NCBI GenBank assembly: GCA_963696295.1
Contig: CAVOJR010000001.1
Coordinates: 1,856,001 to 1,920,000, forward strand
Length of the DNA stretch: 64,000 bases
From: an uncultured Chlamydiae bacterium
Lineage (GTDB): Bacteria; Chlamydiota; Chlamydiia; Chlamydiales; JAJFMB01
Reading direction: 5' to 3'
Position 1 is the first letter of the stretch; the number at the start of each line of letters is the position of its first letter. A model generated the notes under the pieces. That model searched no databases. It saw only the letters and a program-made list of their open reading frames with translations, and had not been told where the DNA came from. The translations under genes and the position numbers were made by a program. Of the stretch, positions 26,806-28,440 are shown in pieces.

Positions 26806-27576
26806 ATGGAATCAACATCCTTCTTTAGTGAACAAAGCCCCAATTTTTCTTTTTTTGAAAATTTTTCCCCTGAGCTAAGGCATCCCCCTAAAATAGTCCA
26901 ATATTCTCTCTTTGAGGGCAGCCCCTTTGCCGACCTATTGACCGGTTCTCCGCTGGCTTTTGGCCAACGCTCTATTGTTCCCCTGATTCCGGCAACGCTC
27001 CCATCTCCCAAAGAAACCGAATTCCACTTTATCCCCCTTAGAGATTCTCCCCTTGCGAGTCCGGTTGTAAGCGGACCTGCTTTATCGCTGACTACCCCTT
27101 CCTCCTCTTCAAGCAGCGGGACCCCTTCCTTTTTGCCGGACAGCCAATCCTCTTCATCCCTTTCAAACGGCACCGGAAACCGATCTTCGCCTATAGGAGT
27201 AATCAGAGAGTTCTTTGCAGAGACGGAAACAACAGATACATTCCTTGATGAACTGGTTGAGAAACTTCCCCATCTCAAAAAAGGGGAAATAAGCGCAGCA
27301 AAAACCATTCTTTGCTGGCAACGCCTCTCATGCAAAAGAAAATCTTGCTCTTATGCTCACGACCCCGATGAATTAGCCCCCAGCCGTGTTAATAGGAAAT
27401 ACAAGCAGCAGAATTGCAAACGAGAGAAAAACAATCAAACATGTCCTTATCAATATAAGTGCGACTTTCTCCATAAAGATGATACCATCCTATGGAGTGG
27501 AAATAGTTTTATTGCAATGCAGGAAAACCTTATTTATCGAAAAGGATTTATTGATGAATCACAGGATAAAAGATGA
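26806..27576 (+). CDS. Tandem CCCH zinc-finger protein 1 (TTP-like), Ser/Pro-rich N-terminus
   Basis: KTIL-Cx5Cx4Cx3H-x18-Cx8Cx5Cx3H with lead-in KYKQQN. Confidence 0.85.
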   Translation: MESTSFFSEQSPNFSFFENFSPELRHPPKIVQYSLFEGSPFADLLTGSPLAFGQRSIVPLIPATLPSPKETEFHFIPLRDSPLASPVVSGPALSLTTPSSSSSSGTPSFLPDSQSSSSLSNGTGNRSSPIGVIREFFAETETTDTFLDELVEKLPHLKKGEISAAKTILCWQRLSCKRKSCSYAHDPDELAPSRVNRKYKQQNCKREKNNQTCPYQYKCDFLHKDDTILWSGNSFIAMQENLIYRKGFIDESQDKR

Positions 27577-28097
27577 GCTCATATTATTACACCCATTATA
27601 TAACCTCTCCTCCTTCTTACCAACCAATCCCTCACACACCTGATAGGGGTACTAGAGCTTTGAACTCTCCCTCTCCATCGTCCCCGGGGACAACTAAATC
27701 GACTCCCGAAAGGAAACAATTTGTCGCGTCAATTTTGAGCTTCTTAGCGACGCCTCCCTCCCCTGAAAGAAAAAGCCCGGGGCCCTCGTACCTAAATCCG
27801 AAAGGAAAAACGACCTTTTGCCATCTGCATCTTTGGAATAGGTGCAGGAGAGAAATCTGCGACTTTGCCCACGACGAATCTGAGCTCAAGGCCGTTCCTG
27901 TGCCCAATAACTACAAAACGGCTTTTTGCAGGCAGGAAAGCGCCTTTGGAACTTGTAACTATAATTTTAATTGCAATTACATCCATCGGCAAGACTGGAT
28001 CGAAAGATACGCCGATATCGTTGTGGTCAGAACCCCGCACCCTTTTTTTCCTTCTCTATTGGTCATCTATAAAATAGGTAAAATCAGCAGTGTATAA
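27573..28097 (+). CDS. Tandem CCCH zinc-finger protein 2 (TTP-like)
   Basis: GKTTF-Cx7Cx4Cx3H-x18-Cx8Cx5Cx3H with lead-in NYKTAF. ATGA overlap with the previous gene. Confidence 0.87.
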   Translation: MSSYYYTHYITSPPSYQPIPHTPDRGTRALNSPSPSSPGTTKSTPERKQFVASILSFLATPPSPERKSPGPSYLNPKGKTTFCHLHLWNRCRREICDFAHDESELKAVPVPNNYKTAFCRQESAFGTCNYNFNCNYIHRQDWIERYADIVVVRTPHPFFPSLLVIYKIGKISSV

Positions 28098-28440
28098 TGT
28101 ACAAAACTTGCACAATACCGCCTTATGTTATTGGTGGTTTACGGGGGAATGCAAATTAACGAATTGCACTTTTGCCCATGACCCAAACCGCCTCATTCCT
28201 GTGATCGTGCATCCCCTATTTAAAACGGTAGATTGCAGCGCAGAAATTGAAAGCCCGGGAAGCTGCCAGTACAAATTTCGCTGCCATTATATCCACCCGA
28301 ATGATTATATAGAAAGTCGAGACTCTTTTATCAGAGTAAGCACTCTTGACCCCCTTACCCATGATTTGATCCTTTATCGCATTGGCATCAAGTCAGACAC
28401 GCCGATCAAAGGGGGAACCCCGAGTCAAGGGCTTCATTAA
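28090..28440 (+). CDS. Tandem CCCH zinc-finger protein 3 (TTP-like, minimal)
   Basis: HNTAL-Cx7Cx4Cx3H-x18-Cx9Cx5Cx3H with lead-in HPLFKTVD. The GTG start overlaps the previous stop. Confidence 0.82.
   Translation: MYNVQNLHNTALCYWWFTGECKLTNCTFAHDPNRLIPVIVHPLFKTVDCSAEIESPGSCQYKFRCHYIHPNDYIESRDSFIRVSTLDPLTHDLILYRIGIKSDTPIKGGTPSQGLH

Follow-up and report, generated by a model that had tools for sequence, protein, structure and literature searches.

The DNA stretch analyzed here, referred to as the window, comprises 64,000 nucleotides of a bacterial genome assembly (CAVOJR010000001.1, positions 1,856,001-1,920,000; genome label G000, contig C1), and all coordinates are counted from its first letter, taken as position 1. 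Within this window, three consecutive open reading frames (ORF1 to ORF3) each encode a protein carrying two CCCH zinc fingers in tandem. This tandem zinc-finger (TZF) domain belongs to a small chlamydial family which, in all likelihood, is a diverged relative of the RNA-binding module of the eukaryotic tristetraprolin (TTP/ZFP36) proteins. The three genes are the following.

26806..27576, + strand: ORF1, 256 residues; N-terminal 169 residues rich in Ser, Pro and Thr, then the tandem CCCH domain and a shortened C-terminal extension
27573..28097, + strand: ORF2, 174 residues; N-terminal 82 residues rich in Ser, Pro and Thr, then the domain
28090..28440, + strand: ORF3, 116 residues, GTG start at 28090; a nearly bare domain with 12 residues ahead of the first Cys

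The stop codon of ORF1 and the start codon of ORF2 share the sequence ATGA (4-bp overlap), and ORF2 and ORF3 overlap by 8 bp (GTGTATAA). An earlier reading of the sequence alone (hereafter the sequence-only reading) had described three overlapping intronless ORFs, and their coordinates, strand and overlaps were all confirmed. Furthermore, a metagenomic ortholog of ORF3, P0048, begins at the residue equivalent to the GTG start. From their arrangement, the three genes are best explained as a translationally coupled operon.

The zinc-finger spacings were parsed in each protein, with the following results.

27313..27474, + strand: fingers of ORF1, Cx5Cx4Cx3H (27313-27360), 18-residue linker DPDELAPSRVNRKYKQQN, Cx8Cx5Cx3H (27415-27474)
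27819..27986, + strand: fingers of ORF2, Cx7Cx4Cx3H (27819-27872), linker DESELKAVPVPNNYKTAF, Cx8Cx5Cx3H (27927-27986)
28126..28296, + strand: fingers of ORF3, Cx7Cx4Cx3H (28126-28179), linker DPNRLIPVIVHPLFKTVD, Cx9Cx5Cx3H (28234-28296)

Two CCCH fingers per ORF, 18 residues apart, had been reported, and the three linkers quoted at that time proved exact. In the whole family, the linker measured from the His of finger 1 to the first Cys of finger 2 was 18 residues long in 19 of 19 parsed rows (20 rows in total). The description of finger 2 as Cx8-9Cx5Cx3H with both aromatic residues also held in the spacing parse: in the three ORFs, one aromatic follows the second Cys and another lies within Cx3H (CpY..CxF/YxH). 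According to the TIS11d-RNA structure, each finger uses two such aromatics for base stacking. Finger 2 is preceded by YKT-like lead-ins (KYKQQN, NYKTAF and LFKTVD in ORF1, ORF2 and ORF3), and the lead-in, the spacing and both aromatics were conserved in six of the six proteins of this genome.

Finger 1 had been credited with YKT-like lead-ins and (Y/F)AH ends. The ends were found (SYAH, DFAH and TFAH in ORF1, ORF2 and ORF3), whereas the YKT-like lead-ins precede finger 2 instead; those of finger 1 are of the KT/NT type and lack Tyr (AKTILC, GKTTFC and HNTALC). Similarly, the canonical Cx8Cx5Cx3H spacing could not be retained for this finger, which is Cx5Cx4Cx3H in ORF1 and Cx7Cx4Cx3H in ORF2 and ORF3. 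Alignment with TIS11d by means of a hidden Markov model (HMM) showed a one-residue deletion in each loop of finger 1. The site aligned to the TIS11d Tyr that follows the second Cys was occupied by R, K, L or a gap, and the aromatic within Cx3H was kept. When the tandem-CCCH motif, written as a regular expression, was run over 40,951 six-frame ORFs of the genome, seven matches were obtained (the six family members described below and one repeat artefact), and none in each of five residue shuffles.

A family profile was then built from nine family domains (alignment A2) and searched against the PDB sequence set. The top match was 9y10_A, a C3H1-type domain-containing protein (1.3e-14); tristetraprolin itself (1m9o) was found at 2.2e-12, TIS11d (1rgo) at 4.6e-12 and a cytoplasmic zinc-finger protein (6nzl) at 1.9e-08. 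The TTP-family matches extended over both fingers and the linker in a single stretch, at profile positions 3-65. Those to Unkempt, muscleblind, Roquin, MEX-5 and CPSF30 were much weaker and mostly concerned one finger. The family HMM scored 101 bits against ORF1, and the neighbours of the family in the Atlas were eukaryotic zf-CCCH clusters (score 0.88, taken as a lead only).

The fold was examined in AlphaFold2 models. The ORF3 model, obtained from a 20-sequence family alignment, had a mean predicted local distance difference test score (pLDDT) of 89.2 and a predicted template modelling (pTM) score of 0.79, with a pLDDT of about 96 over residues 11-100; in the ORF2 model, the pLDDT was 95-98 across residues 81-170. 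A Foldseek search of the PDB with the ORF3 model returned no match at E 0.001 or better. Its best match was TIS11d (1rgo; E 4.1e-03, probability 1.00, 70 columns, 36% identity, TM-score of 0.55 on the target). VIA-align, which is independent of Foldseek, also ranked 1rgo first among 48,161 chains (Z 4.5, root-mean-square deviation 4.1, 68 of 70 residues), the next chain being at Z 3.1. The assignment to the TTP type was made because the two structural searches agree with the sequence profile, and not on account of the absolute fold scores. The TTP/ZFP36-type module named in the sequence-only reading was thus recovered both by the profile (1e-14 to 1e-12 over the two fingers) and by the two fold searches, with TIS11d at the top of each. 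Very probably, the core of the domain is homologous to the TTP-type tandem zinc finger and has diverged from it.

About 35 further residues follow finger 2 in every member of the family, and they form a three-stranded beta-sheet in both models (pLDDT >95).

27996..28085, + strand: C-terminal beta-sheet of ORF2, residues 142-171 (strands 142-146, 149-155 and 163-171; pLDDT 97-98)
28303..28392, + strand: C-terminal beta-sheet of ORF3, residues 72-101 (strands 72-77, 80-86 and 93-101; pLDDT about 96)

VIA-align gave no convincing match for this sheet, the glyoxalase-type halves found at Z 2-3 not being trusted. The 20 family proteins were also searched for the core of a CNOT1-type tail, written as LP[IVL]F, and no match was found. 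As no deadenylase-recruiting tail was seen, homology with TTP does not imply that these proteins trigger mRNA decay as TTP does.

At the other end of the proteins, composition confirmed the Ser/Pro-rich N-termini that had been noted in two paralogs. Ser, Pro and Thr together make up a fraction of 0.37 (ORF1) and 0.48 (ORF2) of the residues ahead of the domain, against 0.159 in 1,527 long ORFs of the genome. Inspection of these two pre-domain regions by eye revealed no hydrophobic signal peptide. One helix was predicted in the otherwise low-confidence N-terminus of ORF2.

27705..27749, + strand: predicted helix of ORF2, residues 45-59, PERKQFVASILSFLA; pLDDT of the block about 72, followed by TPPSPERK

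In ORF2 and its two orthologs, residues T44, P45, E46, S53, L58, P61, P62, S63 and P64 of this region are invariant, and the modelled helix is a candidate short interaction motif. A motif common to the N-termini of ORF1 and the paralog L004 was also considered and was dropped, since BLASTP found no significant N-terminal similarity between them; their alignment (E 4e-15) was limited to the domain.

Six family members are present in the genome, namely the three-gene array and three solitary genes, and the length of the family proteins ranges from 99 to 308 residues. Metagenomic orthologs exist for ORF2, ORF3 and one further paralog. Over its full length, ORF2 is 66% identical to P0027 and 54% identical to P0036 (75% for P0027 in the best BLASTP local alignment), and ORF3 is 63-67% identical to P0048. 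In the main tree, calculated on 20 family domains, ORF3 grouped with P0048 (support 100/99*), the paralog at 2.316 Mb with P0033 (100/99*) and ORF2 with P0027 and P0036 (90/68); ORF1, ORF2 and ORF3 did not group with each other. As the members of the array are separate in the tree and have their own orthologs, the array is composed of old, separately conserved paralogs.

With ORF3 as the query, two of 41 related genomes were matched, the source genome and G001, which belongs to the same family and another genus (81% complete). G001 carries three adjacent paralogs (L009) plus a weak broken match. In its array, finger 1 has the canonical Cx8Cx5Cx3H spacing with a KTxMC lead-in, and finger 2 lacks one Cys. 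The three G001 proteins formed a clade of their own (96/97*), and the tree indicates that this array arose, or was homogenised, independently. The proposal that the module had been acquired and triplicated was therefore too simple, given six old paralogs, array members that do not group together and an independent array in the sister genus.

A library of 1.84 billion proteins contained 9,233 proteins matching the family profile at E<=0.001. Among the best 150 of these, 16 matched in one stretch; 15 spanned positions 2-3 to 97-99 of the profile, and P0123 ended at 82. Five of the 16 came from the source genome or G001 and 11 were metagenomic, the ten metagenomic members examined being all unnamed singleton clusters. 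The remainder of the best 150 were mostly long multi-finger proteins. Ten non-family matches were examined, including a copepod protein, EukProt and MMETSP transcripts and a Symbiodinium 'ZFP36', and these were eukaryotic. In a scan of the phylum with the family profile (400 genomes drawn evenly, one of which was not scorable), ten genomes matched: the source genome, 8 of the 69 genomes of one other family and 1 of the 46 genomes of another.

No relative was found in 185,579 species genomes when ORF2 was the sole query. A second scan of species genomes with a three-sequence canonical TZF alignment (patterns [YF]KTELC[SNR][QR][YWF] and C[KST]Y[GN][EDN][RHS]CQF) gave 26 pattern matches, none of which was confirmed; these patterns are narrow, and absence outside the chlamydiae is not implied. 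Metagenome contigs searched with the ORF2 ortholog alignment yielded no match. The family has so far been seen only in chlamydiae.

Metagenome-contig matches to P0036 were rejected as orthologs, as they correspond only to a dispersed DNA repeat which forms the annotated N-terminus of this protein. The repeat is about 165 bp long, has inverted self-matches of 26-30 nt (like a miniature inverted-repeat transposable element) and occurs in at least 15 copies in the genome at 72-86% identity (e.g. G000:C1 1024245-1024409, 2212468-2212633 and 2884433-2884596), none of them in the window. It was also observed at 31 metagenome loci (L037-L067), within and between ORFs.

Canonical CCCH proteins exist elsewhere in the phylum. 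The PF00642 cut-off was passed by five of nine other chlamydial proteins, strongly by L012, L013, L014 and L017 (45-60 bits), and L013 and L014 show the full canonical pattern (YKTE(P/L)C-Cx8Cx5Cx3H-x18-Cx8Cx5Cx3H). A large tree of 91 TZF cores (68 columns, 46 of 88 branches unresolved) can neither name a donor nor count acquisitions. In this quick, poorly resolved tree, L015, L016 and L018 joined the window family with a support of 95 in the Shimodaira-Hasegawa-like approximate likelihood ratio test (SH-aLRT), and the canonical L012-L014 were scattered among eukaryotic sequences; more than one acquisition of a TZF by chlamydiae is possible.

The contigs of L013 and L014 are short; since L012 and L019 are located more than 150 kb inside large contigs, at least these two are not contaminants. 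At L012:148-1899 (- strand, genome G176), two adjacent CCCH genes were observed (frames of 391 and 153 residues), the second being a near-canonical TZF with a 15-residue linker. L014:1402-2001 (- strand, genome G275) encodes a canonical TZF protein ending in SPLPIFKELIKK, on a short contig for which contamination is possible. The LP[IVL]F pattern had two matches, both in L014, and the end of this protein resembles RLPIF, the core of the tail by which tristetraprolin binds CNOT1.

The assembly consists of 3,433,500 bases in two contigs (3,298,190 and 135,310) and is 97.4% complete. The window also encodes a topoisomerase I fused to a SWIB domain (14180-16729), a Protochlamydia-type outer membrane protein (Pom) and RecQ. 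Four ATP/ADP translocases were found in the genome, against none in each of 14 control genomes. The TopA-SWIB fusion and the ATP/ADP translocases are chlamydial markers, and the translocases are moreover a mark of intracellular life. By its gene content, the organism is a chlamydia.

The immediate surroundings of the array contain the following features.

25814..26656, - strand: OTU-like cysteine protease gene, 280 residues, divergent from ORF1 (PF02338, E 6e-06, 27.2 bits against a cut-off of 23.3)
26742..26771, + strand: promoter-like site TTGACT-18-TAAACT, a consensus match only, within the AT-rich 149 bp that separate the OTU gene from ORF1
28505..28801, + strand: small downstream ORF, 98 residues, 64 bp past ORF3, with a strong AAGGAGG ribosome-binding site

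The OTU-like neighbour is predicted to have a eukaryote-type deubiquitinase fold and would be an effector-type gene. Promoter-like sites were more numerous between 26400 and 29000 than in shuffled sequences (13 against 4.8 +/- 2.1), and a scan for terminators was uninformative (3 sites against 2.8 expected). The 98-residue downstream ORF, which had no match in Pfam (searched in a longer form), NCBIfam, PADLOC, PHROGs or the Atlas, may be a fourth gene of the operon. Also near the array, a protein of 1053 residues (22638-25799) belongs to no known family and has nine paralogs in the genome (E 2e-85 to 3e-55); from sequence comparison, it looks like a member of an expanded effector-like family. 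By eye, two similar halves of this protein flank a Lys/Glu/Ala-rich repeat (45-bp unit x3, 23812-23947). At 28979-29356, an ORF of 125 residues (pI 4.5), for which no family was found, contains a 126-bp unit repeated 2.8 times at 96% identity (29006-29357), i.e. 42-residue repeats (GGYYRWEHTGGEPEGTW...). Farther away, positions 12593-13969, 42413-43144, 44807-46958, 48780-58895 and 60705-61586 are dense in eukaryote-type or host-interaction genes; the host-interaction genes of the window include three protein kinase-domain ORFs, a PP2C phosphatase, a DUF4172-Fic gene beside a resolvase and a DUF3638 ORF of 3371 residues.

With high confidence, we regard the genes, the homology of the domain, its fold, its distribution and the chlamydial setting as established. 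Binding of zinc and RNA by the domain is likely by analogy with the TTP-family module. Each finger would hold one zinc ion, and the 18-residue linker and the (Y/F)K(T/K) lead-in would position finger 2 as in TIS11d; because they place it in this way, finger 2 would hold a short stretch of single-stranded, U/A-rich RNA between its pair of aromatics. Finger 1 and the beta-sheet are predicted to pack with finger 2 as one rigid domain and would probably alter or narrow the choice of ligand.

The following steps would take place outside the bacterium and could equally well prove right or wrong. The secretion signal and the motifs for host contact would reside in the variable N-termini rich in Ser, Pro and Thr, one of which contains a conserved helix. 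After delivery to the cytosol of a protist host, the proteins would occupy or mask AU-rich elements of host mRNAs, or recruit other factors there. Since no tail for docking CCR4-NOT could be recognised, the proteins would more likely compete or mask than induce TTP-like deadenylation and decay. The points counted for an effector are a patchy, expanded and fast-evolving family, variable N-termini, the head-to-head OTU gene, the nearby 1053-residue protein with its nine paralogs and the kinase, Fic and DUF3638 genes of the window. To these are added an intact sctU, two secretins and four ATP/ADP translocases in the genome, and the lack of any matching bacterial, defence or phage family for ORF1-3 in NCBIfam, PADLOC or PHROGs. 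Taken as a whole, the proposal that chlamydial TTP-type proteins are exported and bind host mRNA is, in our view, evenly balanced. A more specific version is put forward tentatively: the proteins would be tail-less tristetraprolin mimics, injected rigidified TZFs which compete with the TTP-type decay adaptors of the host for AU-rich elements. It is just as speculative that, within this scheme, the three co-translated paralogs cover different RNA motifs through their differing finger 1 surfaces.

Several observations weigh against the proposal that exported TTP-type proteins act on host mRNA. Finger 1 lacks the aromatic equivalent to that of TIS11d after the second Cys and has a shortened loop. 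Judged by their absolute scores (E 4e-3 and Z 4.5), the fold matches are weak, as is usual for a zinc-held fold of 65 residues. No Pfam CCCH model reached its cut-off on ORF1-3, the best being PF00642 with 16.0 bits against 20.5 on ORF3; ORF1 scored 13.6 bits against a cut-off of 24 with the tandem model PF25543, and the genome-wide PF00642 scan gave 17.4 bits, also below cut-off. Among the 20 family members, two matched PF00642 at E<=0.01, and ten of the 11 families matched were CCCH models. The composition gave no sign of recent import, being modestly below that of the genome (GC 0.44-0.46 and third-position GC 0.40-0.48 in the zinc-finger genes, against 0.48 and 0.55 +/- 0.10 in the long ORFs of the genome). 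In ORF3, the first finger is preceded by no more than 12 residues, and chlamydiae also use eukaryote-derived domains inside the bacterium, of which the TopA-SWIB fusion of the same window is an example. Finally, the sole FHIPEP/sctV gene of the genome, just downstream of sctU, is split over three frames (G000:C1:256120-258152, L030-L032) covering profile positions 1-207, 207-302 and 327-656. This split reflects either a broken export gate, i.e. a pseudogene in this strain, or assembly indels.

Three other explanations were weighed. It could be supposed that the locus is an artefact, with eukaryotic DNA wrongly assembled into the contig of a bacterium or with Cys and His residues that fell into this pattern by chance in frames that are not coding, since the closest relatives beyond the family are eukaryotic and since an antisense ORF of 178 residues (26799-27335, - strand), probably a by-product of biased composition, overlaps the low-complexity N-terminal half of ORF1. 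However, the locus is situated 1.88 Mb inside the 3.30-Mb contig and is surrounded by bacterial housekeeping genes (ParB, TopA-SWIB, isocitrate dehydrogenase), which rules out the misassembly of eukaryotic DNA evoked in the sequence-only reading. The ATGA and GTGTATAA overlaps are features of bacterial operons, and introns are absent. The family is moreover found at five other loci, three in the same genome, the array of the sister genus and its weak broken match. Furthermore, three unrelated environmental runs yielded six contigs of read length which match positions 26583-27416 with 0-2 differences, ORF2 and ORF3 not being reached, and the tandem-CCCH motif never appeared in the five shuffles. 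An artefact is thus extremely improbable.

It is unlikely that the proteins are RNA-binding regulators which are never exported and which bind AU-rich bacterial RNA, for example in the developmental cycle. The domestication of other eukaryote-type domains by chlamydiae (TopA-SWIB at 14180-16729), the near absence of an N-terminal extension of ORF3 that could hold a secretion signal, the split sctV and a gene composition close to that of the genome all favour this explanation. A core regulator would nevertheless be unusual with such a patchy, lineage-specific distribution and independent expansions; in addition, long disordered N-termini rich in Ser, Pro and Thr with TPPSP-type motifs are typical where eukaryotic partners are met, and the neighbours are effector-type genes. 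The proteins could also be secreted and have another ligand (another class of RNA, poly(ADP-ribose), DNA or a host protein), or serve as decoys for the host factors that regulate TTP-type proteins. In agreement with this, finger 1 is non-canonical and without one stacking aromatic, the beta-sheet gives a rigid domain unlike the flexible TTP module, finger 2 of the sister genus has lost one Cys, and the weak Pfam matches span many CCCH subfamilies, among them ZAP-like, PARP12-like and DUS3L. However, the best matches by sequence and by fold were the TTP-family domains that bind AU-rich elements and not other CCCH classes, and the lead-in, spacing and aromatics of finger 2 were kept throughout the six family proteins of the genome. 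This last alternative is considered improbable.

The sequence-only reading had also stated that no bacterial TTP-type effector operon has been described, and a full-text literature search did not turn up any description of bacterial or chlamydial TTP-type or CCCH effectors, nor of a bacterial effector with an RNA-binding TZF or with host mRNA stability as its target. TTP-type tandem zinc fingers are regarded as having arisen in eukaryotes, where they control mRNA decay in a sequence-specific manner. In PMC5031192, CCCH-mediated mRNA decay is treated as a eukaryotic mechanism. Compared with the eukaryotic-like domain proteins well known from environmental chlamydiae, the family brings a new type of domain, an altered finger 1, an added beta-sheet and a new process that would be targeted. 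The canonical chlamydial CCCH proteins must already be visible in domain databases, because they pass Pfam; the description is new and the data are not.

The family is a bacterial variant of the TTP-type module that has not been described before, and its members are probable effectors. With a conserved, expanded TZF family in a bacterium that lives obligately inside cells, the stability of host mRNAs would join the processes which effectors may target directly. If the proteins are indeed tail-less mimics, they would be the first family of bacterial effectors to recognise the sequence of host mRNAs directly and so reprogram their stability; a parallel would then be seen in the capture of TZFs by giant viruses which infect the same protists. 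In addition, the family offers a compact, apparently rigid natural variant of the TZF, whose altered finger 1 and beta-sheet would be useful for studying RNA choice. Its small size, the short proteins and the confident models make tests of zinc binding, RNA binding and localisation easy.

TTP/ZFP36 proteins bind AU-rich elements of the UUAUUUAUU type with high affinity. Like their TZF (1M9O, 1RGO, 9Y10), the chlamydial domain has two CCCH fingers joined by an 18-residue linker, a FAH-type end of finger 1 followed by an (E)L which opens the linker, and a (Y/F)K(T/K)xxC motif before finger 2. It differs from them by a finger 1 of the Cx5/7Cx4Cx3H type, without the lead-in Tyr and one of the stacking aromatics, and by the conserved three-stranded beta-sheet, modelled as rigid with finger 2. 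The 20 proteins of the chlamydial family gave no match to the LP[IVL]F-type core of a CNOT1 tail. Unlike TTP/ZFP36, the genes are bacterial and intronless, form an operon of overlapping genes and stay below the Pfam CCCH cut-offs.

The canonical proteins L012, L013, L014 and L017 belong to the same phylum and, like the window family, are small, with a disordered N-terminus followed by tandem fingers; in contrast, they have no beta-sheet extension. Tandem CCCH proteins of giant viruses also associate TTP-like fingers with parasites of protists, and are viral and not bacterial. When compared with BFVD, the ORF3 model weakly matched those of Marseillevirus LCMAC201 and Tetraselmis virus 1 (E 3.9e-03 and 1.2e-02, about 30% identity). 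In muscleblind (MBNL), one of the paired fingers has the Cx7Cx4Cx3H spacing, and the pairing of fingers in a compact unit is also shared (profile matches at 3e-05 to 1e-04). However, the MBNL matches concern single fingers, the linker and lead-in motifs differ, and the scores are far under those of the TTP family.

Finally, environmental chlamydiae are known for effectors with eukaryotic-like domains (OTU, F-box, U-box, ankyrin, kinase). The zinc-finger family resembles these by its eukaryote-derived domain, its lineage-specific expansion, its clustering with an adjacent OTU gene and its presence in an intracellular, host-dependent bacterium. It differs from them in its type of domain, an RNA-binding TZF, and in the target that would be implied, the stability of host mRNA.

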